DNA of 24,416 nt from an uncultured virus (IMG/VR IMGVR_UViG_3300020048_000030) (Duplodnaviria; Heunggongvirae; Uroviricota; Caudoviricetes), in IMG/VR virus record IMGVR_UViG_3300020048_000030; one strand, given 5' to 3'. Position 1 is the stretch's first letter. Each line of letters starts with the position of its first letter. The notes under the pieces were generated by a model. It searched no databases. It had not been told where the DNA came from and saw nothing but the letters and a program-made list of their open reading frames with translations. The translations under genes and the position numbers were made by a program. Shown one piece after another: positions 1,326-22,377 of the stretch.

Positions 1326-1381
1326 ATTAAAATAAATAAAAAAGGGAAATTCTATAATTTCCCTTTTTTATTTATTTTAAT
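1326..1381. terminator. Intrinsic terminator, 26-bp perfect inverted repeat with CTAT loop, after the peptidase gene
   Basis: attaaaataaataaaaaagggaaatt-ctat-aatttcccttttttatttattttaat; A/T tracts on both sides; overlaps the peptidase stop codon. Confidence 0.85.
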
Positions 1382-3434
1382 GTTTTTCATAATATTTTTT
1401 GATTTCATGTTCAAATTCAGAACAAAAATTTACAAATTTATCTGGATAACTTTTAAATATTGTTTTATCAGATCTTTTATAATCAATACTACTTAATTCA
1501 TCCAATATCATTTTAGTTAATGATGGTCTAACTTTTGGTGCATCATTAATTTCAAAATCTTTAAATATTAATTTCACTAATTCTGGTTCATTATCAACTA
1601 ATTTTCCAAATAATTGATATTGGTCTTGGTGAAATCTACTTGTATTAATTTGAAAATCTTCTAATGTTCCTAAAAATCCACTACCAGAATTTATTTTAAT
1701 TTTATTTTTAGAATCACTACCATATTTTAATAATGATTCCATATTTGTCCAATAATCATATATCCATTCAGTATATTCATCTGGATTTATTTCAGTACCA
1801 TGTACACCATAATTAACTTTATAACCTAATTTTTTAAAACCATGATCAATTTTTAACCACAATTCACTTTTAAGTGTTTTAGTATTATTAGTTTTCATAT
1901 CATCCATTACTGATTTAAGTAAGTCTAAATCATATGATGATAAATCTTTAAATGCCTTTTGTTGTTCTTCAGTATAATTAAATTCACTTTTAGATATTTC
2001 TTTTTTAACTGATTTATTTTTATTAATCTTATCTAATTGTTTTTCTAATATATTAAGTTGTTTAGCCAAATCATTAGAATCTTCTTCATCATATGTTTGG
2101 TCTAATTGATATTTAACTTCACTTATTTTCTTTATTAATTCTTCTTCTGACATAGTATTTTGTGTATTATCTGACTCTATATCATTTGGATTTATACCTG
2201 TCATTAAATGTTTTTTAAAATTATCAAAATCACCTATATTAGTATATTTTTTTAATGTATCATCATCACTTAAATAAATATCAAAATCAATAATTCTTAA
2301 TCCAAAAAAATCATCATAATCAACATTACTAAAATAGATTTCTACTGTTTCTTTAAAATCATCAGGATTTAAACATTCATAATTCATATCAGTCAATAAT
2401 TCTTGAACAAGTACAAATAATTCTTCCATTGTATCATATTCAGATTTTTTCTTATTAGTATAGTGTTGTTTATAAACAGTATTTCTTTTAGCATTACTAT
2501 ATCCCCTATCCCATACATCCCAATCTTGTTCATAGCTAAATCTACCAATACTTTTACTTACTAAAGTTGGATCTCTTTTAACTGGTAATTTTTCCCAATC
2601 TATATTAATAGCAGCATTTACTAATTTTTCCAAGTGTACAATATCTTGTTCTTCGTTAAAAGTGTGTTCTGCTTTATAACCCATTGATATATTAGTACAT
2701 TCAGGTATAGTTTCCATAAATACGCCTGAATCACACCACATACCAGTTGGATCATTTCTATAATCCATTCCATTTTTTTTAAATTCACTAATCAAAGCAT
2801 TAACAAATTCACTTGAACAACATTCTGAATACATCTGTTCAGATATTATTGAAGTATTTGCTTTTCTATCAAATGCAACACATTTATCATAATCTTTAAA
2901 AAAGTCACCCCTTGATTTTAATGCTTGTTTAGAACCCCATGTTCCAGATGGTGATGTAACGCCTTCTTCACCTCTGAAAAAATAATATAACCCAGGTATA
3001 TTTGCTTCCATCATTTTTATCATAACTACTATACCTGCTTTATCATCACCACCTAATGTTGTTGTTCCATCAGTCTTAATTATATCACCATCAATTACAT
3101 GCCAAACTCTTTTATATTCTCTACAATAAGTATCTAAATGACCACAAAACATAGTCTTACTAGTACCTACTTTTTTATAATAATTACCATGTCCATCAAT
3201 TTCCATATTTGGAAAAAATTCAACCAAGGTTTTTTCATAATTAAATGGAATTTGCATTTTAGTTAAATTCAGAAATAATTGTTTAACACTACCATCCATT
3301 GTATAATCAATATTATCAACTTTTTCAACATCTTTATTCTTATTACCTTTTACTATTGGATAATTTTGTGTTTTTTCTCGTGTTCTAATTTCCCTTTTTT
3401 TATTTCTTCTTCTTTCATTTAATTCTTCATACAT
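1377..3434 (-). CDS. M28/M20-clan zinc metallopeptidase with long acidic C-terminal extension
   Basis: Metal-ligand motifs CGHLDT, LGGDDKAG, FFRGEE, AFDRK and NISMGY..EH in the first ~285 aa; the remaining ~400 aa are unrecognised and include a coiled coil. Confidence 0.8.
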   Translation of the reverse strand: MYEELNERRRNKKREIRTREKTQNYPIVKGNKNKDVEKVDNIDYTMDGSVKQLFLNLTKMQIPFNYEKTLVEFFPNMEIDGHGNYYKKVGTSKTMFCGHLDTYCREYKRVWHVIDGDIIKTDGTTTLGGDDKAGIVVMIKMMEANIPGLYYFFRGEEGVTSPSGTWGSKQALKSRGDFFKDYDKCVAFDRKANTSIISEQMYSECCSSEFVNALISEFKKNGMDYRNDPTGMWCDSGVFMETIPECTNISMGYKAEHTFNEEQDIVHLEKLVNAAINIDWEKLPVKRDPTLVSKSIGRFSYEQDWDVWDRGYSNAKRNTVYKQHYTNKKKSEYDTMEELFVLVQELLTDMNYECLNPDDFKETVEIYFSNVDYDDFFGLRIIDFDIYLSDDDTLKKYTNIGDFDNFKKHLMTGINPNDIESDNTQNTMSEEELIKKISEVKYQLDQTYDEEDSNDLAKQLNILEKQLDKINKNKSVKKEISKSEFNYTEEQQKAFKDLSSYDLDLLKSVMDDMKTNNTKTLKSELWLKIDHGFKKLGYKVNYGVHGTEINPDEYTEWIYDYWTNMESLLKYGSDSKNKIKINSGSGFLGTLEDFQINTSRFHQDQYQLFGKLVDNEPELVKLIFKDFEINDAPKVRPSLTKMILDELSSIDYKRSDKTIFKSYPDKFVNFCSEFEHEIKKYYEKH

Positions 3435-4396: not shown

Positions 4397-4424
4397 AAAA
4401 GTCTGAATTATAATTCAGACTTTT
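4397..4424. terminator. Bidirectional intrinsic terminator (perfect 28-nt palindrome) between convergent genes
   Basis: aaaagtctgaattataattcagactttt equals its own reverse complement. Confidence 0.85.
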
Positions 4425-4569
4425 GTTTTTCTATTCCTAAGATATGTTCTTCTATCCAATCTATACTATATAATGGTTGTCCGTCTTCATCTAAAATATT
4501 CATAAGTTGTTCTGCAACTTCCATTCTATTTTTATCACTACAATTACTACAATTACAATTATTTTCCAT
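4408..4569 (-). CDS. 53-aa mini-protein resembling the portal C-terminal (crown) segment
   Basis: MENNCNCSNCSDKNRMEVAEQLMNILDEDGQPLYSIDWIEEHILGIEKQKSEL; fills the gap between the portal stop and the terminator; aligns by eye with portal KRATIASTLTSNLQNAEGESWLATEWIIRNIM. Confidence 0.7.
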   Translation of the reverse strand: MENNCNCSNCSDKNRMEVAEQLMNILDEDGQPLYSIDWIEEHILGIEKQKSEL

Positions 4570-4597: not shown

Positions 4598-6343
4598 TTA
4601 TTGTGCTGGTGCTTGAGCCTGTGGGGGGGTTTGAGCCTGTGGAGGAGTTTCTTCACCGCCACCTTGTGCAGGAGCTTCACCACCAAAACCACCTTCTTCA
4701 CCACCGCCTTCACCACCTTCATTAAAAAATGGTGCACCAGGCCCAGTTGGCATTCCACCACCCCCACCTTCACCTTCTTGACTACCTTCTTCACCAGTTG
4801 GTGTTCCAGCAAGTGCTGCTTTTTCTTTAAGTTTATATCTTTCATTTTCTGCAATATCTTCATCTGTAAATTTCATGATATTTCTTATAATCCATTCAGT
4901 TGCTAACCAAGATTCACCTTCTGCATTTTGTAAATTACTAGTTAAAGTAGATGCAATTGTTGCTCTTTTTTCTAAATTACCTAAGTGTTTCCATTCTTCA
5001 AATAATTCATTTGAATTAAAATCTACATTAAGTTCTTTAATAAAATTATGATCTTGCATTAATTCAGGGAAATCTCTCATCATTTGAATTTTAAGAGGTT
5101 TAACCATCAATTCTCTAAATACTGTTCTTATTCTTCTTATAAAATTATGAAATTTCATTTCATCTCTAGTTAATTCAGCAGCATCAGTATAAATATTACC
5201 ACCACCTTGTTCTTTTTCAAATCTTGAAAATGGCATACGTGATGATCTTTTAAGATTATTCATAAACCAATTAAGAATTTGATCTTCATTTAAATCATTT
5301 CCTTGTGGTGTTTCTATTGATACATCTGGTTGTCCACCTTCAGAAGATGAGGGAAACCAAAAATCTTTACTATGTGGCATCTGTGATGAACCATTAATAG
5401 ACATTGTTCCTAAATTATCATCCCATGTGATTTCTTCATGATATTCAGACATTAATTGATAAATCTGTTGTTCTGCTTGTTGTCTAGATAAACCACCAAC
5501 TGGAATAACAAATTTTTTATAAACTGCTGCTTGATTAATATTATAAATTAATTTAGTTTGTTCAACTAATTTAACTTGATTATATGGTCTAATAAGTGGT
5601 TCAACATAAGATGTTTCACCATAATCCATATTATTACCATAAGATATATAGATAATCTGCGCATCAAGTAAAACTCTTCTTAATTTTGCATCATCTGGAT
5701 ATTGTATCCAAACTATTGTTCCTGATTCTGGATCAGTTGCTGGTACTAAAGTAATTGGATCTAATTTTATTATATCGGTAATATTTCTTTGCTTTTTATC
5801 ATAAACAATTTCATATGCAATAAAACCATCTATTAATAAATCCCTCATCATATACCACGCTTTAATACCATCATTAAATCCAAAAGTATTGTATAATCTA
5901 TCAAAATTTTCATGTACCTTCTTCCTTATAACATCATCAAATTCTTCTGGTAAATCTTTAGCAAAACAAAATTTATTTGCATCATCAAAAATAACACATT
6001 CATCAGCTATTTGATTTACAAAATCCCTAATTTCATCTTTAATAGAATATTGTCTTAATATTTTTCTTTTATCAAAATATGACCTATCTAAATATGCAAT
6101 AGATTTCTTATCTAAAATCTTAGATATTACTTTTTTAGTAAATAAATCATACATATATGGTCCTTGTACTACATTGGCCATATTAGAATATGAATCAGGA
6201 TCATCATTCGCGCCAATAGCGAAAGATTGTTGTATTGATGATATATCATATGATAAACCATAATTACTTATTTTTCTTAACATTTTACTAAAATATCCAG
6301 TATTAGTCAAATTTGAACCACCTTGTTGAGTGTAACCAGCCAT
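4598..6343 (-). CDS. gp20: T4 gp20-like portal vertex protein
   Basis: Motifs I..IADECVI, RDLLIDG, SYVEPLIRPYNQVKLVE...IY, F.IPVGGL...AEQ, DFWFP, I.TP.G, L.RSSRMPFSRF, LTRDEMKF..FI.R.R..F and N.LFEE.K; 581 aa with a G/E/P/Q-rich tail. Confidence 0.93.
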   Translation of the reverse strand: MAGYTQQGGSNLTNTGYFSKMLRKISNYGLSYDISSIQQSFAIGANDDPDSYSNMANVVQGPYMYDLFTKKVISKILDKKSIAYLDRSYFDKRKILRQYSIKDEIRDFVNQIADECVIFDDANKFCFAKDLPEEFDDVIRKKVHENFDRLYNTFGFNDGIKAWYMMRDLLIDGFIAYEIVYDKKQRNITDIIKLDPITLVPATDPESGTIVWIQYPDDAKLRRVLLDAQIIYISYGNNMDYGETSYVEPLIRPYNQVKLVEQTKLIYNINQAAVYKKFVIPVGGLSRQQAEQQIYQLMSEYHEEITWDDNLGTMSINGSSQMPHSKDFWFPSSSEGGQPDVSIETPQGNDLNEDQILNWFMNNLKRSSRMPFSRFEKEQGGGNIYTDAAELTRDEMKFHNFIRRIRTVFRELMVKPLKIQMMRDFPELMQDHNFIKELNVDFNSNELFEEWKHLGNLEKRATIASTLTSNLQNAEGESWLATEWIIRNIMKFTDEDIAENERYKLKEKAALAGTPTGEEGSQEGEGGGGGMPTGPGAPFFNEGGEGGGEEGGFGGEAPAQGGGEETPPQAQTPPQAQAPAQ

Positions 6344-6385: not shown

Positions 6386-7123
6386 TCAATCTTTAAATAA
6401 TTTGTAATTAGACTCTAAATTTTTTAATTTTTTATAATAATCTTTAATATCTTCTTCATAAGTTTCATGTATTTCAGATAATTCTTCTACTAATTTTTCT
6501 ATTCTTTCCCTCTCTTTTGTACCTTTTTCATATTTATCCATTAATATTTTCATAAGTGCAACATTTAATGGTCTCATATGTATGTGAATTGTTAAATACA
6601 TTAAATTAGTTGATATCCCAAATAATTCAGTTATTTTTGTTATATCAAATGCAGAAATTGCATAATGATAACCACCATTACTTTGTAATGTTTTATATAT
6701 CTGTTCGAAATTTACTGGTAATGGTTTTTCTTCCATAAAATTTGGTGCATCTCCATTAAAATCAAATAATTCTTTAAAAACTACATTAAGTTGATTAAAA
6801 TATAAAGATTTATAATCAAATGGTAAATAATCTAAATTAATTGCATACATAACATGTTTACCACTTTCTTTAATTCTGTAATCAATAGTAAAAATAGGAC
6901 AATATAATTTGTTTTCATTGAAATTATAATTTATAAGATAAAATTTTCCTACTTGTATTTTATTATGGGGTACATTCATAAACCAATCAGTAGGTTCTCT
7001 TCTCATTAAAAATACTTCCTTATTAGATGCATTTATTAATGAAACTAAATCATTACCAAATTGACTACGTAATGCCCTTACATAATAATCAAAAGGATGT
7101 CCTTGTTCAGTAATAAGTGCCAT
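6386..7123 (-). CDS. gp2: T4 gp2-like DNA end protector protein
   Basis: GKFYLINY...PIF...MYAINLDYLP resembles gp2 (G..Y...Y...P.I...YGLNLHY.P); lies near gp4 as in T4-like phages. Confidence 0.65.
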   Translation of the reverse strand: MALITEQGHPFDYYVRALRSQFGNDLVSLINASNKEVFLMRREPTDWFMNVPHNKIQVGKFYLINYNFNENKLYCPIFTIDYRIKESGKHVMYAINLDYLPFDYKSLYFNQLNVVFKELFDFNGDAPNFMEEKPLPVNFEQIYKTLQSNGGYHYAISAFDITKITELFGISTNLMYLTIHIHMRPLNVALMKILMDKYEKGTKERERIEKLVEELSEIHETYEEDIKDYYKKLKNLESNYKLFKD

Positions 7124-8505
7124 TAGTTATTTCTTTTATTTTTCATATGTGAACATATTTCATCTAACCAACCATTTCTATATGCCGCACAAACTAATGC
7201 GTTATTCTTAATTCTAAGTTCACTCTTTGAATTGTATTTTAATGATTCTTCATGACATTTTTCTTTAGTCCAATAATTTCTTGGTTTTTGTGTAGGTATT
7301 ATATGTGAACAAACTTCATCTAACCAACCATTTTTACGTGAAGATTCATATGCTCCTTTTGATGAATTTTCAAATTCATGTCTACTTTTATATTTTAATG
7401 CTTCTTTTTTACATTTTTCATATGTCCATCTTAATGGACCACCAATTGCACCGGTTTTTGCTTTATTTAATACACACCAACCTTCACTGTTATATTTTTC
7501 AACATAATACCCTTCTAACTTAATTGCGTCATTAACATTAATATATTCAGTTAATTGTTTTCTGATTGGTTTTAATTTGGATTCTTTTATGTGTTTTGTA
7601 ACTTGATCATTATCACAATTATCTCTATCTTTTTGTCTTTTTTCTAAATTATATGTTAAACCAACATAAACTGAATTATCAGAAAATTCATAACAATAAA
7701 TACATCTTTTAGTATTATTATTTTGTATTATCATATGTGAACATATTTCATCTAACCATCCATTTTTAAGTGCACTATTATATGTGCTACTATTATTTTT
7801 CTGAAATTCACTTCTTGTTTTACATTTTAATGCTTCTTCTTTGCATAGTTCTTTAGTCCAATAACCATTTGGTTTTTGTAAAATTATCATATGATTACAA
7901 ATTTCATCTAACCAACCATTTCTGTGAGCAGCAGAATAAATATTACTAGAATTTTTACTAAATTCTGTTCTGTTAATATATTTTAATGCTTCTTCTTGAC
8001 ATCTTTTTTTAGTCCAATAATTATTTGGTTTATGTAAAAGTATCATATGATTACAAATTTCATCTAACCAACCATTTATTCTTGATATTTTATATACACT
8101 TGCATTATTTTTCTGAAATTCACTTCTTGTATTGTATTTTAGTGTTTCTTCTTGACATTTTTCTTTAGTCCAATAACCAGTTGGTTTTTGTGTAGGTATC
8201 ATATGAGAACATATTTCATCTAACCAACCATTTTTATTAGATATAACATGTACACTTGCATTATTTATCCACAATTCATTTCTTGTTTGATATTTTAATG
8301 ATTCTTCATGACATTTTTCTTTAGTCCAATAACCATTTGGTTTTATTAAATTTATCATATGACTACATATATCAATCATCCAACCATTTCGTATAGCTGA
8401 TTTGATACATCCTTTAGCATTTTTTCTAAATTCTTTTTTTGTTTGATATTTTAACGCTTCTTCCTTACATTTTTCATAAGTCCAATAATTTCTAGATTTT
8501 ACCAT
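7123..8505 (-). CDS. Free-standing GIY-YIG homing-endonuclease-like protein with seven ~52-aa helical repeats
   Basis: Central CIYCYEFSDNSVYVGLT...KR...E..YVEKY...LN catalytic domain; five N-terminal and two C-terminal WTKEKCxEEALKYxxRxEF...GWLDEICSHM repeats; wedged between gp4 and gp2 with near-zero spacing. Confidence 0.8.
   Translation of the reverse strand: MVKSRNYWTYEKCKEEALKYQTKKEFRKNAKGCIKSAIRNGWMIDICSHMINLIKPNGYWTKEKCHEESLKYQTRNELWINNASVHVISNKNGWLDEICSHMIPTQKPTGYWTKEKCQEETLKYNTRSEFQKNNASVYKISRINGWLDEICNHMILLHKPNNYWTKKRCQEEALKYINRTEFSKNSSNIYSAAHRNGWLDEICNHMIILQKPNGYWTKELCKEEALKCKTRSEFQKNNSSTYNSALKNGWLDEICSHMIIQNNNTKRCIYCYEFSDNSVYVGLTYNLEKRQKDRDNCDNDQVTKHIKESKLKPIRKQLTEYINVNDAIKLEGYYVEKYNSEGWCVLNKAKTGAIGGPLRWTYEKCKKEALKYKSRHEFENSSKGAYESSRKNGWLDEVCSHIIPTQKPRNYWTKEKCHEESLKYNSKSELRIKNNALVCAAYRNGWLDEICSHMKNKRNN
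7730..8495 (-). repeat. Five tandem 156-nt repeats encoding the WTKEKC...GWLDEICSHM module
   Basis: agtccaataa and atttcatctaacca motifs recur at 156-nt intervals; two further copies at about 7140-7430. Confidence 0.85.
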
Positions 8506-8506
8506 T

Positions 8507-9031
8507 TTAATATTTTTTCTTTTTATAAGAACTTTTAGGTGGAATTAACCCCTCTTTTATTAATCTATCTTCAGTTATAATTACAAATTCTGCTTTATTT
8601 TTAATGCAATATTCATATGCCGAGTTCCACTTCAATTTATTACGAATATGCTGACGAACAGCATATTCGTAGTTTTCCAAAGCTTTTCCCGTTTCATTTA
8701 ATGGTCTAACTGGTGGAACTAATTCTGCGGCTGGTTTTATTTCAACAATAACTGTCTTATAATTAAGTGGATCACCCTCTACTGCCAAGGAGTAAGTAAA
8801 GTCAGGGTAATATCTATGTGTCTTCCCCGCAGTATCTTTATACATTATTATTGGTTGTTCCATTGCCCATTTTTTTATGAGTGGATTTGTATCTAAATAT
8901 CTACAAAATGCAAGTTCCCAAGAACTTCTATATTTTATATCTAGTGGATTACCAATGTATTTATCAGGATTAACAGGATTATATAACCCTTGTTTATAAT
9001 TATCATTCCATTGTGATTTATTACTACTCAT
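8507..9031 (-). CDS. gp4: T4 gp4-like head completion nuclease (TnsA-like PD-(D/E)XK)
   Basis: YKQGLYNPVNPDKYIG.P..I.YRSSWELAFCRYLD.NP.I.KW..E...I.Y......HRYYPDF...IVEIKP is the gp4 signature. Confidence 0.92.
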   Translation of the reverse strand: MSSNKSQWNDNYKQGLYNPVNPDKYIGNPLDIKYRSSWELAFCRYLDTNPLIKKWAMEQPIIMYKDTAGKTHRYYPDFTYSLAVEGDPLNYKTVIVEIKPAAELVPPVRPLNETGKALENYEYAVRQHIRNKLKWNSAYEYCIKNKAEFVIITEDRLIKEGLIPPKSSYKKKKY

Positions 9032-9046
9032 TTTTATTATTATTTT

Positions 9047-9590
9047 TTAAAAAATTACTACAATTGCAATAACCCATAATAATATTAATAGTATAAAATA
9101 TAACAATTTAATTTTTTTATCTATTAATTTAGATTTTTCTTTTTCATTAATAGAGTCTTCTAGTCTAGATAAAGTATTTTTTAGATTAAATAATGCCATA
9201 TCATTTTTAATAATATAATCATATGCACCTTCTTTCATCATAGATGCTGCAATTTCAACATTTTCTTGACCGGATAAAATGACAACACTAACAGTAGGAT
9301 TATTTATAGCAACATAATTTAATACATCACCACCATTTAATCCATTTTCAGATAATTTATGATCTAATACAATACAGTCAGGTGATTCTTTTTTTAAAAA
9401 AGAAATAACATCTTCTCCGTTATGAAATAATTTAATATTTTCATATCCAGATTTTTCTAAATTTATCTGTACTAATTTAGCATAAAAAGGAATATCATCT
9501 ACTACAAATAAATTAATTCTTCTATATGGTATAGTGCNNNNNNNNNNTGCCAATTAATTTATTAATTATTTTTATAAATATATTTTTCAT
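9047..9590 (-). CDS. CheY-like response-regulator receiver with C-terminal transmembrane anchor; spans a 10-N scaffold gap
   Basis: VVDD, IVLDHKL (phosphoacceptor D), ILSGQ and DYIIK motifs; hydrophobic tail LLYFILLILLWVIAIVVIF. The likely start is ATG at 9590 (MKNIFIKIINKLIG), in frame if the gap is collapsed on the duplicated tgc. Confidence 0.8.
9538..9547. other. Assembly gap (10 N)
   Basis: Run of n flanked on both sides by tgc. Confidence 0.95.
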
Positions 9591-9607
9591 TATTAATATT
9601 TTTATTT

Positions 9608-9643
9608 TATATATTAAAAATAATGGTGTCCATTTTATATATA
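9608..9643. promoter_or_regulatory. Back-to-back ATATATA promoter cores (minus: TAATATATA 9608-9616; plus: TTATATATA 9635-9643)
   Basis: The minus core is 17 nt before the receiver gene ATG; the plus core is 5 nt before the endonuclease ATG. Confidence 0.55.
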
Positions 9644-9648
9644 TTAAT

Positions 9649-10773
9649 ATGTCATTAAGAAAATCACAAATAGAAGTAGATGAAATAATTAATAAAAGAT
9701 TAGAAGAAATTAATGTATCATTAAGAGAACCATATATACATAAGAATAATAGGTCAAAATTACAATTAATATGTAATATAGATAATCATATATGGGATGT
9801 TAAATACTTTTCTTTTATAAATAAAAAAAGTGGATGTCCAAGATGTGCTGGTCAAATTATATATAAAGAAGAAGCTGAAAATAATGTTAATAAAAGATTA
9901 AGAGAAATAAATGCAACATTAAGAGAACCATTTACTTATATTGGTGCTGAAAAAACAAGACTGAAATTAAAGTGTAACATAGATGGATATGAATGGGAAA
10001 CACATTATTCAAATTTTGTGAATAATAAAACTGGTTGTTTTAGATGTAGTGGTCATGTTCTTTATAATTATGAAATAGTAGATAATATTAATAGAATATT
10101 GAAAGAAATAAATGCGACATTAAGAGAACCATACATACACATAAATAATAAATCAAAATTAAAATTAAAATGTAAAATAGATAATTGTGAGTGGGAATCT
10201 ACTTATTATAATTTTGTAAATAGTAATAAAGGATGTCCAAAATGTGCAAATGTTTTAAAATTAACACAAGAAGAAGTAGAAGAAAAGATATTAAGACAAT
10301 GTAAAATAATGAATTATGAAATAAATAAACCATTTGTTTATGAAAATACACGTACACTATCATTAGAAATTAAGTGTAATAAATGTAATCATATTTGGAA
10401 TGTTAAATTAAATAATTTTATAAGTCATAAAAGTGGATGTCCTAAGTGTAATACATCAAAAGGTGAAAATAAAATTGAAACTATATTAAAAGAAAAAAAC
10501 ATACAGTATGAAACACAAAAAATTTTTTATGGGTGTATAGATAAAGGTTTTTTGAAATTTGATTTTTATTTACCCAATATTAATACATGTATTGAATTTG
10601 ATGGTGAACAACATTTTAAATCATTTAAATTTTTTGGTGGTAAAGAAAAATTAAAACAAAATAAAAAAAGAGATGAAATAAAAAATCAATACTGTTTAGA
10701 AAACAATATTGATTTAATTCGTATTCCATATTATGAATTTGATAATATTGAAGAAATATTAAAAAGAATGTAA
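9649..10773 (+). CDS. Homing-endonuclease-like protein: four Zn-ribbon repeats plus C-terminal PD-(D/E)XK (Vsr/DUF559-like) nuclease
   Basis: Repeats LREPY..KL.L.C..D...W.....F...K.GCP.C; tail SKGE..I...L...FDFYLP..N.CIEFDGEQHF...RD..K..YC..N.I.LIRIPY; 3' end overlaps gp55 by 15 nt. Confidence 0.8.
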   Translation: MSLRKSQIEVDEIINKRLEEINVSLREPYIHKNNRSKLQLICNIDNHIWDVKYFSFINKKSGCPRCAGQIIYKEEAENNVNKRLREINATLREPFTYIGAEKTRLKLKCNIDGYEWETHYSNFVNNKTGCFRCSGHVLYNYEIVDNINRILKEINATLREPYIHINNKSKLKLKCKIDNCEWESTYYNFVNSNKGCPKCANVLKLTQEEVEEKILRQCKIMNYEINKPFVYENTRTLSLEIKCNKCNHIWNVKLNNFISHKSGCPKCNTSKGENKIETILKEKNIQYETQKIFYGCIDKGFLKFDFYLPNINTCIEFDGEQHFKSFKFFGGKEKLKQNKKRDEIKNQYCLENNIDLIRIPYYEFDNIEEILKRM

Positions 10774-11136
10774 TCCTTTACCTTCATTTGCACGATCAAT
10801 ACTTATCATCTTAATAATATCATCATTATAACTTTTTTTGTTATTAATTAGATTTATTCCGTCGGCCAGTCCGCGTTTAAAAATTTCTGTGAAATATGGA
10901 AATGCTGATTCATACTTACGGTGATTGAAATTTTTCCAATTTTGAAACATATGTAGGAGGCCTTGTTGTATGCAGTCATTCCTATCATCTATTGTATTAT
11001 AATTTCTTTCTTTTTTTCTAATAGTATTCTTTGCAATCAAAATTAATAATTGTTCTGCTCTTGGTGTTAGTTTACCTTTGCCTTTTGACACTATCATTTC
11101 TCTATAAAATTCACGATCATCTAAATATTTTGGCAT
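10759..11136 (-). CDS. gp55: T4 gp55-like late-transcription sigma factor
   Basis: From ATG 11136: MPKYLDDREFYREM...LILIAKN...DCIQQGL...NWKNFN..KY..AF.YFTEI..; matches gp55 region 2 (Y....E....., IA, NF...KY.N.F.Y.T). The TTG start at 11175 in the track is less likely. Confidence 0.85.
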   Translation of the reverse strand: MPKYLDDREFYREMIVSKGKGKLTPRAEQLLILIAKNTIRKKERNYNTIDDRNDCIQQGLLHMFQNWKNFNHRKYESAFPYFTEIFKRGLADGINLINNKKSYNDDIIKMISIDRANEGKGLHSF

Positions 11137-11350
11137 TTTTATTAAATTTTTTTTTGTTAAAAAATTTGTTTCCAAACTTTTTTTTAAGTACTTTTGTAAC
11201 TTGGGAAATATTTTTGTATATATTTTTTTTAAAACCCCATTTTACTATATATAATCTTATATACAAAAAGTTCTTAAAAGTTTCTTTATTCTAGTTAAAA
11301 TAATTGATGTTTTATTTTAATTTATTCATTATCAATATGTTAAAATTATA

Positions 11351-11379
11351 AAAACTTTAATTAAATTAATAGATATATA
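11351..11379 (+). promoter_or_regulatory. Putative AAAACTTT-N15-TATAT promoter upstream of two mini-ORFs
   Basis: The same motif and spacing occur at 18591-18618 upstream of guaC. Confidence 0.5.
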
Positions 11380-11383
11380 TGAT

Positions 11384-11554
11384 ATGGATCTATTTAATTT
11401 ATTACCTATTGTTAGAAGAGTGTCTGCTAATTCAATTGCAGATGATTTAATTGGAATGAGACCTGATGAAACTTGGGATAAAGCAGTACATAGACATATG
11501 TTAGAAATGAGATTAAAGAAGATTACAAAAATAAAACAACAGATGAAGAAATGA
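11384..11554 (+). CDS. 56-aa mini-protein with a major-capsid-protein-like segment and basic C-terminal helix
   Basis: MDLFNLLPIVRRVSANSIADDLIGMRPDETWDKAVHRHMLEMRLKKITKIKQQMKK; LPIVRRV....IADDLIG..P resembles the gp23-family L..VRR....IA.D..GVQP motif; ATGA overlap with the next ORF. Confidence 0.7.
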   Translation: MDLFNLLPIVRRVSANSIADDLIGMRPDETWDKAVHRHMLEMRLKKITKIKQQMKK

Positions 11555-11664
11555 AAATGCCTTATTCACAAACACTAGAAGAATTTTGGTATCAATATGT
11601 TAAAAATATTAAAATAAAGAAAAGAAGAGAAAAGATTTTAAAATTAAAAAAGAAGATTGGTTAA
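11551..11664 (+). CDS. 37-aa basic mini-protein
   Basis: MKMPYSQTLEEFWYQYVKNIKIKKRREKILKLKKKIG; ATGA-coupled to the upstream ORF; its stop shares TTAA with the convergent gene. Confidence 0.55.
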   Translation: MKMPYSQTLEEFWYQYVKNIKIKKRREKILKLKKKIG

Positions 11665-12611
11665 TCTTCTTTTTCTTCAGGTGGTGTTTTAGTAAATGTA
11701 GTAACTAGTGGAACATCTTCATCATTCATACCACCATAGTCTTTTCTTTTAAATAGAAGAATTCTTCTATTTATAGCATCTAATTTTTTTCTTTCATCTT
11801 TACTTAGATATTTAGCTTCCTGTTTTTTTCTAAGTTTTTCTTTTTCTTCTTTTTTGTTTTCATTTATAACTTCATTGTATTTATTCTTAATTCCACTATC
11901 TTTATTTATAGTAACATTTAAAAAATTAATAAATATCTGTTCATATTTTTTTAACTCTTCTTTAGTATGATTATTTTCTTCATAATCTTTCATCATTAAT
12001 CTAATCACATTTTCTGATTTATTATTTTTTAATAAATATTTAATTTGTGTAGTAAATGGAATATATTCAAGCCAAACATTAGGATATGTATTATGTCCAA
12101 AACAATCTTTTGGGTTAAAAACATTATCCCATGATCCAAATTTATCAGCTGTAATAAATTGATTTTTTATTTTTGGTATATCTTTATAATCTCTCCAAGA
12201 TACAACATGTCCTATTTCATGAGGTATCCAACCATCTACATCATTATCCCATGCAGATTTTTCAAATACAATCATATTTGTTTTTCTCATAGAAACACTT
12301 TTTCCTGTTTTACCAAATTTTACAAAAACACCATCTGGTACTAATCCTATTATAATATTTTCTGGTTCATAATACTTTAATATGATATTAGAATTATTTA
12401 ATCCTTTATAACCCATCATAGAAAAAGCTGATATAATATAATTTTTACATTTTGTTACTATCATATCATCCTCCAAGATTTTCTTTCCGATATTTTTACA
12501 ATCAATAAAAAGTTGTTTATCTTCTTTTTCATTTTGTATAAGAATTTCTACTTGATTTTTAAAAAAATCACCAATAGTTGCTTCATTTACAAATTCTTTA
12601 AATGTTTTCAT
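11661..12611 (-). CDS. Putative internal head protein with HExxH zincin-like motif
   Basis: Leader MKTFKEFVNE; WIPHEIGHV and a downstream E (WLEY); a second leader-like motif KYNEVINE near the C-terminus. Confidence 0.6.
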   Translation of the reverse strand: MKTFKEFVNEATIGDFFKNQVEILIQNEKEDKQLFIDCKNIGKKILEDDMIVTKCKNYIISAFSMMGYKGLNNSNIILKYYEPENIIIGLVPDGVFVKFGKTGKSVSMRKTNMIVFEKSAWDNDVDGWIPHEIGHVVSWRDYKDIPKIKNQFITADKFGSWDNVFNPKDCFGHNTYPNVWLEYIPFTTQIKYLLKNNKSENVIRLMMKDYEENNHTKEELKKYEQIFINFLNVTINKDSGIKNKYNEVINENKKEEKEKLRKKQEAKYLSKDERKKLDAINRRILLFKRKDYGGMNDEDVPLVTTFTKTPPEEKED

Positions 12612-12877
12612 ATTATTTTAAATTTTGTTTCAAATTTTCCACCAATAACCTTACATAGTTTATCTTTGTAAACAGTAAATGTAATATTATATTCTCTACC
12701 CATCTCATCTAATTTTTCAATCTTGGAAATTTTAACACATTGTTCATTTTTCCATAAAAATGATTGATTTTCAATTAAAAATTTAGAAAACGATTGTAAT
12801 GTTTTAACTGGTATTGAATCTGTTAAAGTGAATACTTCTTCATTTAAGAAGTTATCATATTTTATTATTTTTTCCAT
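12608..12877 (-). CDS. Small hypothetical protein with capsid-targeting-like leader
   Basis: 89 aa, MEKIIKYDNFLNEE; TAATATATA 21 nt upstream; ATGA overlap with the next gene. Confidence 0.7.
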   Translation of the reverse strand: MEKIIKYDNFLNEEVFTLTDSIPVKTLQSFSKFLIENQSFLWKNEQCVKISKIEKLDEMGREYNITFTVYKDKLCKVIGGKFETKFKII

Positions 12878-12897
12878 TCTTTTATTGATATTTTTTA

Positions 12898-14166
12898 TTA
12901 TATATTAATAATTTTATTTATATTATTATCTAATAATTTTTCTAATCCAAAATGTTTTGGTTTAATTTTTAATAATTCATTTAATGTAACCCACTTATAA
13001 TCTTCTGTTTCAACCAACCCTCTTTCATTTTCCCAATCTAATTCTGGATCAAATTCATCTTCAATCAATCCAATAAAATTATGATATGTAAATCCTCTTT
13101 CTTTATAAATATATGAAGGAATTAATTCAATTGGTTTATTACATCCAGTTTCTTCATTAAATTCTCTAATAGCAGATTCTTCAACATCTTCATTATCTTC
13201 AATTTTACCACCCCAGATTCCCCATGTATGAGGTTCTAATACATAACTTGATCTAAATGCAAGTAAGAATCTTTTAGTTTTTTTACAATATGGTAGAATT
13301 CCAGCACCTATATTTCCCCATCTACCAGTATTTGTCATATGTTCATTAATATTAGTTTTAACTAATAATACAGGTGAATCAGTATATTCAGCAATATATG
13401 TACCTCTTTTACTATATTCTGTGGTTGCAAATTTATTAATTGTACTTTCATTTATATCTTCATAATTAAATATATCATAATTTTCAGGAGCAAATAAAAA
13501 TTCCATATATTCTCTAAAAGTCATATTATGTTTTTTCATATTATTTACTATTACAAGTTCTCTATCTTTCCATTGAGATAAATTTTTAGGATTATTAAAA
13601 ATATTTTCTAATTTTTTAATTACTTCTTCAATATTATTAGGAGTTATTTCATTAAAATTACTCATATCTTTTAATAACATTGCCATATCAGATGGACCAT
13701 TAATATAATAATTTCCAAATTCTTCTTCAAATAATTTAGTTCTAAAATTTCCAAATAAATAAGGCATACAAACAATTTTAGCATGATCAAATGGTATTAC
13801 ATAATAATAAGAATTTGCAAAAACTGATGTTATACCACCAGAAGTAGCCATATTTAATGAATTTTTCTTTAATGGTAAATCTTTACTTTTCCATAAATCA
13901 GATGAAATAAATTCTGTTGTGATATAATTAAAATCAAATTTAAATTGATTTATTGTTTGTTCACTATTTACTAAATAATAATTACCTTTTAAACTTTTAT
14001 CACCCCTATAAAAATGAATTCTATTTTTAAGATATGTTTTACAATATTTATTACGAATATTAAAATACATATTCTTATCTAATTCAGTGATATATTTACT
14101 TGAATTTACTATTGATTCAATATCATCTGATGATTCTAATAAAAAATTTTCAAAGTTTGTTATCAT
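12898..14166 (-). CDS. Two-domain protein: N-terminal possible ADP-ribosyltransferase-like domain plus C-terminal Nudix hydrolase, with capsid-targeting-like leader
   Basis: The Nudix box GGKIEDNEDVEESAIREFNEETG is clear; the N-domain has HFYRG and SLNMATS (ART-like, tentative); leader MITNFENFLLES. Confidence 0.75.
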   Translation of the reverse strand: MITNFENFLLESSDDIESIVNSSKYITELDKNMYFNIRNKYCKTYLKNRIHFYRGDKSLKGNYYLVNSEQTINQFKFDFNYITTEFISSDLWKSKDLPLKKNSLNMATSGGITSVFANSYYYVIPFDHAKIVCMPYLFGNFRTKLFEEEFGNYYINGPSDMAMLLKDMSNFNEITPNNIEEVIKKLENIFNNPKNLSQWKDRELVIVNNMKKHNMTFREYMEFLFAPENYDIFNYEDINESTINKFATTEYSKRGTYIAEYTDSPVLLVKTNINEHMTNTGRWGNIGAGILPYCKKTKRFLLAFRSSYVLEPHTWGIWGGKIEDNEDVEESAIREFNEETGCNKPIELIPSYIYKERGFTYHNFIGLIEDEFDPELDWENERGLVETEDYKWVTLNELLKIKPKHFGLEKLLDNNINKIINI

Positions 14167-14173
14167 ATCTATT

Positions 14174-14716
14174 TTATTTTTTAATAAACATATCTAATGT
14201 TGTTTTATCTAATTTTTCAATTGGTAATATTTTAGTAACTGGACTTCCAAAATGATATTTTTTAATTGAAAATTTATCATTATTCAATATATATTCTGTT
14301 GCTGAATGTCCTATTGTGGGGTTATTAATACAATCAAAAACTAATGGTTTATCCTTACCTGCTTTTGGGTATGCATCTAACATATTTCCAATAACCCATT
14401 TATTATCTTTAAGAACATATATAGTAACTTTATTATTTTTAATATTTAATGCACATTTAATTTCTTTATCAAATAAGAATAAAATAGAATTGGCTTCATA
14501 TTCAAATTTAGGGTCAACAAAAAATGAATTTTGATACCATTCTTTTAATCCTTTATCATCACCACCCGTATTTGCATGTTCAGATTTCCATCTTTTAGTT
14601 TCTCCTTTATCAGTTATAAGATATTTAGAACCTTGCCCAGTTTCAAAATATAATATAATATTATTTCCTGTACTTGATGTAATTGATTCTTTTAATAATT
14701 GTGTAAATTTTTTCAT
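14174..14716 (-). CDS. Hypothetical protein with capsid-targeting-like leader
   Basis: 180-aa ORF in a tight operon; starts MKKFTQLLKES. Confidence 0.7.
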   Translation of the reverse strand: MKKFTQLLKESITSSTGNNIILYFETGQGSKYLITDKGETKRWKSEHANTGGDDKGLKEWYQNSFFVDPKFEYEANSILFLFDKEIKCALNIKNNKVTIYVLKDNKWVIGNMLDAYPKAGKDKPLVFDCINNPTIGHSATEYILNNDKFSIKKYHFGSPVTKILPIEKLDKTTLDMFIKK

Positions 14717-14719
14717 ATT

Positions 14720-15991
14720 TTATTTCTGTTCAGTTTGTACAACTTTTTCTGGTTGTGTCTTTTGTACTTCTTTATTTGGTTGTGTTTCTTTTATTGGTTG
14801 AGATTTTTGTACTTCTTTTGGTTGTTCTGTTGATTTAGGTGAAGATGGGTTTATTTTTGCTAATGTAGGTTGTATAGTTTGATAAATTCCAATACATAAT
14901 GCTAAATTTTCAAGAATTGCTAATATATCTGAAATATAAGGTATTTTTTGTGCAATCCCTTTAATTTTATCTACTACACTTTTTGGATCAATTCCAATTT
15001 TACCATAAATTTCATCTAATGTTTTATTTTTAATATCATGTGTAAATGTTGATATATCACCTTTTTTCATTGCTTCTTGAAACTCTTTTAATTTATTTCC
15101 TATTTTTTCATTAAATTTATAAATTACATATATTTCTAACATATCAAATAAAAATCTTAATCCTCTAACAAATCTATCTGTTTCTTTTAATAAATCAACT
15201 GCTTCAGTTACTTTTTCTTCATCTTCTTTATCTATCCAAATAAAAAATTTTCTTATAAATTCTTCAACAGCATACAATCCTTGTTTAATCATATCTTCCA
15301 TTTTTGGAATCCAACTAAAAGGTGGTAATGATTGAATTTTATCTCCTAATCTTTGAAGAAACGATTTCTTTTCTGTTTCATCTCCTTCATTTAAAAAATC
15401 ATTACAGAAATAATTAAATCCTTCATTTGTTCCTTTACTGAAAACATTTTTAAAAAAATTAATTAATTTATTAAATAGTTTTACTGGTAATTCAGTTAAT
15501 ACAAATTTTAATATAGTACCAGCACCATCTACCCATTTTTTTAAATTATCACCTTTTCTATTCATATAATCAGTGATTAAAACTAATAATTCTGGTTTTG
15601 GTATTATTTTACTTTTAAATGTACTTACAGAATTTTTAATCAATCCACTAACAGCATCTCTTATTTGAGTAGCAATAAGTTTAACAAAATCTACTATATC
15701 TTTAGCTTTTTTAGCAACTGATGTTAATAATTCTCCTGCTTGTGATTTTATTTTTAAAACTCCTTTTGTAGCCTTATCTTTTAAATCATCAAACCAACTT
15801 TCATTTAAACTATAATCAAATTCATTTAATAGTGTTTTTTCAAAATCAGTTAAATGGAATTCATAGATACTATTAAATATTTCTACAAAATATAATTTAT
15901 CATCATTCTCAATATTAAGTGATTCTAATAAAAGATAATTATCATTTATATTTATCTTTTCATTTACAAATTGGTCATATTTTGTTATCAT
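14720..15991 (-). CDS. Helical/amphipathic hypothetical protein with capsid-targeting-like leader and multiple [LV]xE sites
   Basis: MITKYDQFVNE; LLLES, LLNE, SLNES, FLNEG and VTEA motifs; hydrophobic ILAILENLALCIGIY; Q/P/K/E/T repeat tail. Confidence 0.7.
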   Translation of the reverse strand: MITKYDQFVNEKININDNYLLLESLNIENDDKLYFVEIFNSIYEFHLTDFEKTLLNEFDYSLNESWFDDLKDKATKGVLKIKSQAGELLTSVAKKAKDIVDFVKLIATQIRDAVSGLIKNSVSTFKSKIIPKPELLVLITDYMNRKGDNLKKWVDGAGTILKFVLTELPVKLFNKLINFFKNVFSKGTNEGFNYFCNDFLNEGDETEKKSFLQRLGDKIQSLPPFSWIPKMEDMIKQGLYAVEEFIRKFFIWIDKEDEEKVTEAVDLLKETDRFVRGLRFLFDMLEIYVIYKFNEKIGNKLKEFQEAMKKGDISTFTHDIKNKTLDEIYGKIGIDPKSVVDKIKGIAQKIPYISDILAILENLALCIGIYQTIQPTLAKINPSSPKSTEQPKEVQKSQPIKETQPNKEVQKTQPEKVVQTEQK

Positions 15992-17458: not shown

Positions 17459-18592
17459 AAACTTATTTAATCTTTTCAATATATACTTATATGGTAGAAA
17501 TTACATCAGAAATTTTAATTGAAAAATTAAAAGTAGTTCATAATAATAAATATGAATACCCATTATTTAATTATACTAATATGCATATGAAATTAAAAAT
17601 TATATGTAAAGAACATGGTGTATTTGAACAAAGTGCTCATTCACACTTAAAGGGATATGGTTGTCCAAAATGTAAATTTGATAAATTAAAAAATATTTTT
17701 AGTCATAATAAAGAAAAATTCATAGAAAATGCAAATAAAGTACATAATTTTGAATATGATTATCATTTAGTTGATTATATTAATGCACATGCAAAAGTAA
17801 AAATAATATGTCCTATTCACGGTATTTTTGAACAAATTCCTAATAATCATATAAGTAAAAAACAAGGGTGTCCTCTTTGTTCTTATGATAATAAAAAATT
17901 AGATTATTATAGTACATTAGAAAAATTAAAAATAATACATAATAATAAATATGACTATTCATTAAATACTATTATTGAATCCACAAATAAATTAAAAATT
18001 ATTTGTTCTATTCATGGTGAATTTAAACAAAAATTACACATTCATATGGATGGTCATGGGTGTCCAAAATGTGGTACTAATAAAATAACAAAAACAGAAA
18101 ATATATTCATAGAAGAATCTAATTTAATTCATAATAATAAATATGATTATTCTTTAGTAGATTATAAAAATGCCTATACTAAAGTAAAAATAATATGTCC
18201 TATTCATGGTGAATTTTTACAAACACCCCAATCTCATTTAAATGGTAGTGGTTGTCCAATTTGTAAATCATCAAAAGGTGAAAAAATAATAAAAGAATTT
18301 TTAGAAAATAATAATATTGAATTTGAAACACAGAAAAAATTTAAAGATTGTAAAAATGAAAAATCATTAAAATTTGATTTTTATCTTTTAGATTATAATA
18401 CTTGTATAGAATTTGATGGTAAACAACATTTTGAATCAGTTGAACATTTTGGTGGAATTAAAGCATTTCATAAACAACAATTAAGAGATAAAATTAAAAC
18501 TGAATTTTGTAAAAATAATAATATAAATTTAATAAGAATTAAATATGATGAAAATATTCAAACTATATTATATAATGTCATTTTTTCCTAAA
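17443..18592 (+). mobile_element. Endonuclease cassette bounded by a 19-nt imperfect direct repeat
   Basis: aatgtcatttttttctaaa (17443-17461) and aatgtcattttttcctaaa (18574-18592) differ by one base and flank the nuclease ORF. Confidence 0.55.
17491..18591 (+). CDS. Homing-endonuclease-like protein: four H-N-K-Y-D-Y/CPxHG..GCPxC Zn repeats (DUF723-like) plus PD-(D/E)XK (Vsr/DUF559-like) nuclease
   Basis: Repeats HNNKYDYS...KVKIICPIHGEF.Q....HL.G.GCP.C; tail SKGEKII...FDFYL...CIEFDGKQHF...RDKIK..FC..NNI.LIRI. Confidence 0.82.
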   Translation: MVEITSEILIEKLKVVHNNKYEYPLFNYTNMHMKLKIICKEHGVFEQSAHSHLKGYGCPKCKFDKLKNIFSHNKEKFIENANKVHNFEYDYHLVDYINAHAKVKIICPIHGIFEQIPNNHISKKQGCPLCSYDNKKLDYYSTLEKLKIIHNNKYDYSLNTIIESTNKLKIICSIHGEFKQKLHIHMDGHGCPKCGTNKITKTENIFIEESNLIHNNKYDYSLVDYKNAYTKVKIICPIHGEFLQTPQSHLNGSGCPICKSSKGEKIIKEFLENNNIEFETQKKFKDCKNEKSLKFDFYLLDYNTCIEFDGKQHFESVEHFGGIKAFHKQQLRDKIKTEFCKNNNINLIRIKYDENIQTILYNVIFS

Positions 18593-18642: not shown

Positions 18643-19587
18643 ATGAATAAAAAATTCGATTTTGATGATATTAATCTTATTCCAAGATATAGTACAGTAA
18701 ATAGTAGACAAGAATGTGATACCAGTATTAAAATTGGTAATTATACATTTAAAAATCCAGTCATTCCAGCAAATATGGAATCTGTTATTAATGAAGAATT
18801 AGCAATTCAATTGGCTAAAAATGGATATTTCTATGTTATGCATAGATTTGGTACTGATAATATAGAATTTATTGGTTATATGAAACAAAATAATTTAATA
18901 TCATCTATATCAATTGGTGTAAATGAAGATTCATATCATTTAATTGATAATCTAGTAAAATCTAACTTAATTCCGGATTATATAACTATTGATATTGCAC
19001 ATGGTCATTGTAAAAAAATGAAATTAATGTTAAAATATCTTAAAGAAAAATTACCAAGTGTCTTTGTAATTGCAGGAAATGTAGCAAGTATTGATGCCAC
19101 CGTTGACTTAGATAATTGGGGTGCAGATGCAATAAAGGTAGGTATTGGACCGGGTTCAGCATGTACAACATATCCTACTACTGGATTTGGAAGTAGAAAT
19201 ATTCAAGCATCAGTTGTAAATGATTGTGCAAGTGTAACAAAGAAACATATTATATGTGATGGTGGTATAAGGAATCCGGGTGATATTGCTAAATCTATTG
19301 TAATGGGTGCTTCTTTGATAATGATTGGTGGAATGTTATCATCTTTTATTGATTCACCAGGAAAAATTATTACTATGGATGGTATTCAATATAAAGAATT
19401 TTATGGAAGTGCATCAGCAAGACAAAGTAATAAGACAAATAGAATAGAAGGTACTGTTAAATTAAATAAAATTAAAAATACCACAATGGTAGAATATATG
19501 GAATATCTTTCTGAATGTCTTCAATCTTCAATAAGTTATGGTGGTGGAAAAAAATTAACAGACTTACATTCTGTAAAATGGATATAA
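18643..19587 (+). CDS. guaC: GMP reductase (short GuaC type 2), auxiliary metabolic gene
   Basis: FDFDDINLIP, PVIPANM, GYFYVMHRF, ITIDIAHGH, KVGIGPGSACTT (catalytic Cys), ICDGGIR..GDIAK, EFYGSAS and LQSSISYGGG motifs; no CBS insert. Confidence 0.93.
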   Translation: MNKKFDFDDINLIPRYSTVNSRQECDTSIKIGNYTFKNPVIPANMESVINEELAIQLAKNGYFYVMHRFGTDNIEFIGYMKQNNLISSISIGVNEDSYHLIDNLVKSNLIPDYITIDIAHGHCKKMKLMLKYLKEKLPSVFVIAGNVASIDATVDLDNWGADAIKVGIGPGSACTTYPTTGFGSRNIQASVVNDCASVTKKHIICDGGIRNPGDIAKSIVMGASLIMIGGMLSSFIDSPGKIITMDGIQYKEFYGSASARQSNKTNRIEGTVKLNKIKNTTMVEYMEYLSECLQSSISYGGGKKLTDLHSVKWI

Positions 19588-22324: not shown

Positions 22325-22377
22325 AATTATTATATATTAAATTTTATGAATTGATTATTTTTAATATATATATTTAT

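Follow-up and report, generated by a model that had tools for sequence, protein, structure and literature searches.

A capsid-protein-like motif in a 56-residue mini-gene of a T4-like phage lineage

Between the gene of a late sigma factor and a run of putative head-protein genes, an uncultured tailed phage carries an open reading frame (ORF) of 56 amino acids (aa) at 11384..11554 (+), a member of a family of 51-110-aa proteins. Its translation contains a stretch that resembles the major capsid protein (MCP) of T4-type phages, and the head genes next to it run on the other strand. This raises the question whether such a short ORF is a gene at all, whether the resemblance goes back to a capsid gene, and which role a detached capsid segment may play. 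Here, we refer to the whole stretch of DNA that was analysed, the 24,416 nucleotides of the IMG/VR record IMGVR_UViG_3300020048_000030, as the window. The translation of 11384-11554 (+) is identical to the peptide quoted in a preliminary description of this DNA, and the opposite strand of the same interval holds no overlapping ORF of 30 aa or more.

Genomic setting of the mini-gene

The window is very A+T-rich (GC 0.20-0.31). Starting from its left end, we find a gp21-like protease as a T4-type head gene (1-1206, -), a peptidase (1377-3434, -), the gp20 portal protein (4598-6343, -; Pfam Portal_T4, E=4e-68) and a gp4-like head-completion protein (8507-9031, -). Positions 9000-14000 were compared with phage records by megablast, and no match was obtained. 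The MCP reference of this study is P0006 from locus L004, the protease gene of which is 94% identical to that of the window. The closest relatives of this MCP come from uncultured 460-735-kb 'huge phage' records (33-61% identity), followed by the Prevotella Lak megaphages (28%). The lineage is a T4-like, very A+T-rich phage related to these uncultured 'huge phages'. The relatives of its MCP point to a host of the Bacteroidota type, and the genes of the window are preceded by no Shine-Dalgarno sequences, which fits such a host.

Several further features of the window deserve mention. In the window (1-1206, -) as in L004 (4722-7229), the gp21-like head protease forms a fusion protein with a long region that resembles a scaffold. 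This region is built from approximately 15 tandem repeats of 14 residues, I-x-Y-[SA]-E-Y-[LIV]-[AS]-E-x-[LV]-D-x-x, with a likely protease site at the end of each repeat, and the repeat pattern is the same as that of the N-terminal targeting sequences of neighbouring genes. Between gp55 and gp4, the phage encodes a response-regulator receiver domain that has a hydrophobic segment at its C-terminus (9047-9553, -). Its gene contains a run of 10 N at 9538-9547, and the homologue in L001 matches Pfam Response_reg with E=1e-14. Three paralogous homing-endonuclease genes of the CapR/DUF4379/HNH type (9649-10773, 17491-18591 and 22351-23445, +) are accompanied by a GIY-YIG-like gene (7123-8505, -). 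The first of the three sits between the response-regulator gene and gp55; a counterpart adjoins gp55 in L084 and is absent in L001. A gene of the IMP dehydrogenase / GMP reductase family (18643-19587, +; Pfam IMPDH, E=1e-60) is located in the plus-strand block, with a homing-endonuclease gene on either side.

The left neighbour of the mini-ORFs is the gp55-like late sigma factor gene (phrog_234, E=6e-7), which is oriented divergently. Its ORF spans 10759-11175 (-), and by comparison with L001 and L084 the start was placed at Met14, which gives 10759..11136 (-). To the right, a convergent gene of 316 aa (11661..12611, -) begins with the capsid-targeting-sequence (CTS)-like N-terminus MKTFKEFVNE. 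The corresponding gene of L001 (5659-5886, -) encodes only 75 aa and has the same 10 N-terminal and approximately 60 C-terminal residues. A module has thus been inserted into, or deleted from, a gene that putatively encodes an internal protein. The 316-aa gene opens a series of five consecutive genes (11661-15991, -) with CTS-like N-termini, namely MKTFKEFVNE, MEKIIKYDNFLNE, MITNFENFLLE, MKKFTQLLKE and MITKYDQFVNE; one of the five, coding for a 422-aa protein, contains a NUDIX domain. By these N-termini, the run looks like a hyperplastic locus of head-packaged proteins.

A promoter motif of its own had been ascribed to the 56-aa ORF in the preliminary description, and this claim was not confirmed. 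The divergent intergenic region between gp55 and the mini-ORFs (11137..11383) is a candidate promoter region with two TTATATATAA-like palindromes at 11245-11254 and 11257-11266. None of the motifs scanned is commoner than expected: TTATATATAA with at most one mismatch occurs at 16 sites versus 18.4 expected (10 of the 16 in or at intergenic spacers), the late-promoter consensus TATAAATA at 13 versus 14.3, and sigma-70-like sites number 6 versus 10.5. At the other end of the mini-ORF array, a 12-bp A/U-rich hairpin lies over the overlapping stops of the convergent genes (11647..11674) and may act as a bidirectional terminator. Its centroid energy of -10.4 kcal/mol corresponds to a weak z-score of -1.63, and a consensus terminator scan called no terminator, this hairpin included. 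L084 has a different but perfect 9-bp hairpin at the same site.

The capsid motif and its family of small proteins

Residues 5-27 of the 56-aa protein (11396..11464, +; NLLPIVRRVSANSIADDLIGMRP) carry a copy of the MCP N-arm motif, found by BLASTP, by hhalign and with a profile of the family. In the BLASTP alignment with residues 85-107 of P0006, 10 of 23 positions are identical and 17 of 23 positive (E=1e-5). The identity of this segment, which we call the bait, to the MCP is thus only about 43%. A 57%-identical family member aligns to the lineage MCP with 11/24 identities (E=3e-6). The family profile, made from 32 sequences, was run against 7117 six-frame ORFs of at least 30 aa from 85 sources, i.e., the window and 84 loci, some of which are duplicates of each other. 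Straight below the five ORFs of the family itself, 56 of the 57 MCP ORFs follow at ranks 6-62 (E 5.7e-5 to 0.011), and the 57th is a C-terminal fragment. In all 56 cases, profile positions 11-35 align to MCP residues ~84-132. Eleven control profiles, one reversed and ten column-shuffled, gave no match at E<=0.011, their best E-values ranging from 0.093 to 1.7. A profile-profile comparison of the family with 39 MCPs (hhalign) gave E=3.4e-5 with a probability of 72% over 37 columns. Within the N-terminal half of the 39 aligned MCPs, no other part varies as little as the motif stretch. The capsid resemblance noted in the preliminary description is therefore beyond chance with respect to the MCP of the lineage itself.

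The closer attribution to the gp23 family of T4 holds in part. Searching Pfam with the 56-aa protein at E<=10 returned Gp23 as the sole match (E=0.11); with residues 6-27 aligned to positions 8-29 of the 376 in the profile, it scores 12.3 bits, below the cut-off of 24.4. Only one of the 32 family members matches Pfam Gp23 at E<=10; the homology is thus to the clade's own MCP and not specifically to the T4 Gp23 profile. The VRR triplet shared with T4 gp23, on which the preliminary description had relied, does occur in the window variant and is peculiar to it, the family consensus being V-K-K at this place. A tblastn search of the ORF against phages yielded 91 records, all with E 1-6; among the 40 matches listed, 24 are annotated as major capsid or head proteins, 6 as exonuclease VIII, and 10 are unannotated or hypothetical, a distribution that is only suggestive. 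From PHROGs, phrog_31281 was the only match (E=0.14). In a weak colinear hmmsearch alignment (domain score 0.2), the motif falls on residues ~94-116 of T4 gp23.

On the strength of these alignments, residues 5-27 are a motif derived from the capsid protein. The likeness to the gp23-family MCPs (Pfam PF07068) concerns the N-arm, where window residues 5-27 are homologous to residues 85-107 of the lineage MCP. It ends there: the window protein has only 23 similar residues and no HK97 fold, and since it misses the Pfam threshold, it is not itself a capsid protein. Family and MCP also differ systematically at two positions, at which Leu100 of the MCP is replaced by Asp/Glu and Met91 by Lys/Arg.

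Similar mini-ORFs in relatives, which the preliminary description had proposed to look for, do exist. A word-based search found five relatives of 56-82 aa with 67-100% identity. When 1.84 billion representatives were searched with the profile at E<=1e-3, 30 matches were obtained, 28 of which are further small proteins of 51-110 aa that cover nearly the whole profile. The remaining two are proteins of 761 and 730 aa without an informative Pfam family. The family thus comprises at least 33 clusters and has neither a Pfam nor a PHROG model; bait, linker and tail could be mapped onto it. Its consensus, derived from 32 sequences, reads L-L-P-I-x-K-x-I-x4-I-A-D-D-I-I-G-x-R-P-D-E-T-W-E-x-A-x2-R-H-x-L-E-x-R-x-K-K-I-x-K-I. 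The half not related to the MCP (D-E-T-W ... R-H-x-L-E) is conserved as strongly as the bait, which makes the 56-aa protein more than a peptide on a handle. Three further searches were negative: a first scan of metagenome contigs gave no confirmed relative, no longer or fused forms were found, and a protein atlas search had no usable match. Short contigs from four DNA sequencing runs repeat two of the L001-type substitutions.

Synteny is retained at three loci (the window, L001 and L084), where the family member lies between the divergent gp55 gene and the convergent gene with the capsid-targeting-type N-terminus. Compared with L001, the ORF shows approximately 3% differences and the upstream spacer approximately 13%. 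By the method of Nei and Gojobori, dN/dS amounts to 0.375/1.545 for the window versus L084, 0.385/1.18 for L001 versus L084, and 0.065/0.12 for the window versus L001; the ratios against L084 are thus ~0.24-0.33, and all of these estimates are based on three sequences only. L085 and L086 depart from the window context in that the family member comes after a gene for a glycosyltransferase; within 2 kb of it, L085 has a NUDIX gene and a gene whose product begins with a CTS-type sequence. Judged by its sequence conservation, the 56-aa ORF is a real, conserved small gene.

In L085, the family member is followed by a second, extremely basic and K/R-rich mini-ORF (5185-5331, +) that ends in Y-Y-E-N-L-K-K-G-N. 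In P0010, a mini-ORF of this type is fused as a C-terminal extension (residues ~60-110), which represents a gene fusion or fission within the family.

Could the ORF nevertheless be a functionless by-product, left behind when illegitimate recombination, in a genome crowded with homing endonucleases, joined part of the capsid gene to a repeated sequence coding for the tail, and kept by chance? Homing sites usually coincide with the best-conserved motifs of essential genes, which we count in favour of this explanation, and the window holds three paralogous CapR/HNH-type endonuclease genes in addition to the GIY-YIG-like one. One endonuclease gene is present in the window and L084 and missing from the same site in L001, and the neighbouring genes show module shuffling, e.g., the proteins of 316 and 75 aa with the same ends. 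Chance persistence, however, is difficult to reconcile with dN/dS below 1 and with an ORF that has stayed uninterrupted in 33 or more clusters (at 50% identity), its start, length and motif pattern being conserved. A bait that is approximately 43% identical to the MCP must, therefore, be old and yet maintained, and the genomic contexts in L085 and L086 are different ones. We consider a by-product very improbable.

Basic tails and tandem mini-ORFs

An AlphaFold2 (AF2) model based on an alignment of five sequences (mean pLDDT 72.5) predicts that the N-terminus is disordered and that two helices follow, a short one at residues 15-23 and a long one at residues 31-55, the latter with block pLDDT values of 84-87. 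The long helix (11474..11548, +) is predicted to be basic and amphipathic and ends in the shared tail R-L-K-K-I-T-K-I. The net charge is +6 over the last 16 residues and +5 over the 56-aa protein, so that the fusion to a basic helix, as put forward in the preliminary description, is borne out by the model. The bait is joined to this helix by a conserved linker, R-P-D-E-T-W, and the extreme C-terminus of the window protein reads K-Q-Q-M-K-K. The tail motif R-x-K-K-I-x-K-I is common to the window family and to neighbouring mini-ORFs that are otherwise unrelated.

The window contains a tandem of two such ORFs. The second one, of 37 aa (11551..11664, +), ends in the tail K-K-R-R-E-K-I-L-K-L-K-K-K-I-G and has an identical copy in L001. 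Its start overlaps the stop of the 56-aa ORF (ATGA), and it is matched by the tail part of the family profile at E=0.018; its N-terminus had no match among the large ORFs. L001 shows a series of 57, 52 and 37 aa, and L084 one of 76 and 59 aa. L001 has its additional 52-aa ORF between the counterparts of these two ORFs of the window. Over the last 15 residues, it is identical to the tail of the window 56-aa protein, and its N-terminus is made up of the 14-residue repeat known from the protease-scaffold fusion, present twice (E=3e-24; 69 of 904 large ORFs matched).

Other baits were sought by phmmer comparison of the mini-ORFs with the same 904 large ORFs. Two related huge-phage loci, L012 and L013, have arrays in which 6-9 ORFs of 49-98 aa overlap one another. 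The arrays are located between a split PolB gene and the MCP gene, and all array ORFs end in R-x-K-x-K-[LI]-x-x-[IL]-F-[GDP]-[DE]. The N-termini of huge-phage mini-ORFs match the scaffold (E=1e-18 and 4e-4) and the N-terminus of the head protease (E=8e-5). A mini-ORF of L019 matches MCP residues 319-378 (E=4.7e-4), a second piece of the MCP spine helix is found in an 85-aa mini-ORF of L013 (Pfam Gp23, E=1e-4), and a mini-ORF of L015 matches PolB motif A (E=1.4e-3; Pfam DNA_pol_B_2, E=0.0078). The family of structural-protein fragments suspected in the preliminary description thus gains siblings with pieces of scaffold, head protease and MCP spine helix. Because these siblings carry pieces of other core proteins, we describe the architecture as a variable bait, taken from an invariant part of a core protein, combined with a constant handle. 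By its sequence, the 56-aa protein falls into this class: it joins a core-protein piece to the shared C-terminal R-x-x-K-[LI]-x-x-[IL] tail and is encoded in tandem overlapping ORFs.

With respect to the PolB gene itself, it appears split in L012 (14160-17910, -) and L013 (17907-21373, -). A 493-aa ORF comprises the exonuclease domain and motif A only and is followed by the array of tail-bearing mini-ORFs, in L013 with a homing-endonuclease-like gene in between. A PolB motif-B appearance of L012 14293-14487 and L013 17907-18104 was not supported by Pfam and was discarded.

The preliminary description had also named a portal-like mini-ORF of 53 aa (4408-4569), and here the outcome is divided: the ORF shows weak similarity to the portal proteins of other loci (E 0.003-0.02), but it matches neither the portal of the window (E=5.1) nor the shared tail. 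Immediately downstream of the portal gene, this ORF (4408-4569, -) has conserved counterparts in L001 and L004 (E=1.6e-22). The portal residues concerned are ~460-495, and ORFs of 190-201 aa in L034, L035 and L082 are matched as well (E=2.6e-6).

How closely the tails of the two groups are related is less clear-cut. The tail part of the family profile matches ORFs of the L012/L013 arrays at E 0.02-0.4, and an in-register hhalign comparison of window-clade and huge-phage tails gives E=1.7e-3 with a probability of 15%; when small ORFs were searched with the tail HMM of the huge phages, the window ORFs were not among the matches at E<=10. Profile support for the link is weak, and the link rests mainly on two bridging members, P0018 and P0019, which combine the MCP bait with the tails K-L-E-K-I-F-G-D-E and K-L-K-E-I-F-G-E-D, like those of the L012/L013 arrays. 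A short, interchangeable C-terminal tail on otherwise unrelated proteins is reminiscent of the clamp-binding tails of T4 gp43, gp55 and gp33. These are hydrophobic and acidic at the end, according to PMC2988020, and the huge-phage tails end likewise. In contrast, the window tail is purely basic without a hydrophobic-acidic end, and the gp55 of the clade ends in G-K-G-L-H-S-F. A sliding-clamp-binding tail was therefore dropped as an explanation, the basic window tail being unlike the gp55 C-terminus.

Tails and neighbours allow for a role inside the phage head. The 56-aa protein would then be a small basic internal head protein, an idea we hold possible but doubtful and rank as the strongest rival of mimicry: its bait, or in the siblings a scaffold repeat or a piece of the protease N-terminus, would dock in the assembling prohead, the protease would cut, and the basic tail peptide would stay with the DNA. 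In the corresponding scheme, which we regard with the same doubt, the cut would fall at the conserved [ILMV]-x-E before the tail, and the tail would serve as a counter-ion or as an injected factor in the manner of the T4 internal proteins. According to PMC9026906, the latter are basic, rely on short N-terminal propeptides for targeting, are cleaved by gp21 and injected, and IPI acts against restriction. The resemblance to these CTS-targeted proteins of hyperplastic loci (IPI-III, Alt) lies in a small basic protein, a fast-shuffling locus and CTS-type neighbours. With 56 aa and a net charge of +5 (0 to +21 in the family), the window protein is small and basic; of 31 members, two are neutral and the remaining 29 have a positive net charge of +3 to +21. 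CTS-like N-termini are encoded adjacent to the family member or within ~2 kb of it in four of five loci (the window, L001, L084 and L085), which fits packaging and the mimic reading discussed below equally well, and the window itself has five such genes in a row. Moreover, the 52-aa sibling of L001 bears the same 15-residue tail behind two scaffold repeats, aromatic-x-[DE]-aromatic-L-x-E, a pattern that equals both the N-termini of the neighbours and the protease-scaffold repeats. Prohead proteins supply four of the five bait types identified. Of the 32 family members, 31 have a recognisable tail, and in 26 of these an [ILMV]-x-E directly precedes it, which is suggestive only.

Several observations speak against packaging. 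The N-terminus of the 56-aa protein, MDLFNLLP, is not CTS-like, as it lacks the aromatic-x-E-aromatic-[VIL]-x-E of the five neighbours and of the L001 sibling, and in this it differs from the T4 internal proteins. The window gene lies on the strand opposite to the adjacent head genes. Triplets of the type [ILMV]-x-E are common in amphipathic helices, and the cleavage rule of the clade's protease is itself only inferred. Finally, the mini-ORF with PolB motif A carries the same kind of tail and has no reason to enter the head.

Capsid mimicry as a possible role

A mimic of the N-arm may also act in assembly. By binding the MCP or the scaffold, it would curb premature self-assembly of the phage's own MCP or poison the capsids of co-infecting relatives. 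The N-arm of T4, in which Met98 is located, is disordered before the head expands and ordered thereafter, and it engages in inter-subunit and portal contacts (PMC9546572). In our AF2 model of the MCP monomer, pLDDT falls below 50 over residues 46-111, which contain the motif region, as expected for a segment that becomes ordered only in the lattice. The baits from MCP, scaffold and protease are likewise pieces of the interface type. A protein of this kind would, however, threaten the assembly of the phage's own heads as well, and the PolB bait would be left unexplained, so that we judge this role unlikely.

Our tentative preference is for mimicry in a more general sense, which we would call possible rather than probable. 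By analogy, the 56-aa protein may imitate, and thereby compete with, the capsid segment equivalent to the Gol peptide of T4. The correspondence of the window motif to Gol depends on the weak alignment to T4 gp23 (score 0.2) and on the residue range assigned to Gol. The bait would occupy whatever partner normally recognises the invariant MCP peptide, and the handle would supply a common activity, e.g., oligomerisation, nucleic-acid binding or recruitment of a partner. The most likely partner would be a host factor to which the MCP peptide signals an infection, comparable to the recognition of T4 Gol by Lit with EF-Tu, and the 56-aa protein would then be a decoy or anti-defence microprotein. The exchanges of Leu100 to Asp/Glu and of Met91 to Lys/Arg could allow binding without triggering or assembling.

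Mimicry is favoured for three reasons. It is the sole reading that also covers the PolB bait, and since PolB does not belong to the virion, its use as a bait speaks for mimicry or decoy action in general more than for head targeting. The T4 segment to which the capsid motif would correspond is a known linear-peptide trigger: the 29-residue Gol region is reported to be the most conserved part of gp23, to bind EF-Tu and to switch on Lit (PMC3014915 and PMC9712102). And MCP, scaffold, protease and polymerase recur as defence triggers; in PMC13728456, MCP, scaffold, head protease and DNA polymerase are reported as triggers or escape loci of defence systems. The window bait resembles Gol in being a short linear stretch from the first quarter of the MCP; Gol is described as most conserved in gp23 and active as an isolated peptide (PMC3014915). 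The difference is that Gol is part of the capsid gene, whereas the window peptide stands apart from the capsid gene, has diverged and is joined to a basic helix. Against mimicry it may be held that a copy of a trigger peptide might set off the sensor instead of blocking it. The equally strong conservation of the half not related to the MCP, the weak profile link between the two types of tail and the lack of a Pfam Gp23 match in 31 of 32 family members also count against it.

A search of one literature library for a description of such phage mini-genes found none. The nearest published parallel found are the ankyrin fusions of Bodo saltans virus (PMC5871332), in which fragments of essential genes are fused to a repeated module and interpreted as decoys. 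Both systems would share conserved fragments of essential proteins (there 5' gene fragments), a shared module and tandem arrays. However, Bodo saltans virus is a giant virus of eukaryotes, and its module is a long ankyrin-repeat domain compared with a helix of ~25 residues here. The decoy function is a proposed idea in that source, too.

Extending the analogy, the T4-like phages of this clade and their huge-phage relatives may encode a combinatorial bait-and-handle set that presents core peptides (MCP N-arm, MCP spine helix, scaffold repeat, head protease and PolB motif A) as decoys against a pattern-recognition immunity of the host, with the 56-aa protein as a free-standing Gol-type peptide. 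This wider proposal is conceivable, and we put it forward with considerable doubt. If it applied, the sensing of linear capsid peptides in the manner of Lit and EF-Tu would be widespread outside E. coli and actively countered by phages. If, on the other hand, the tails are packaged, the mini-genes would represent a new route, besides the N-terminal targeting propeptide, for loading small basic proteins into T4-type heads. Should the 56-aa protein act as a mimic, the mini-genes would parallel, in phages, the decoy fusions that have been suggested for a giant virus of eukaryotes, and their baits would mark which peptides of capsid, scaffold, protease and polymerase are actually read by host immunity. 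The sensing of conserved phage proteins by defence systems, and the answers of phages that leave these proteins unmutated, would then become testable with proteins of 50 residues.
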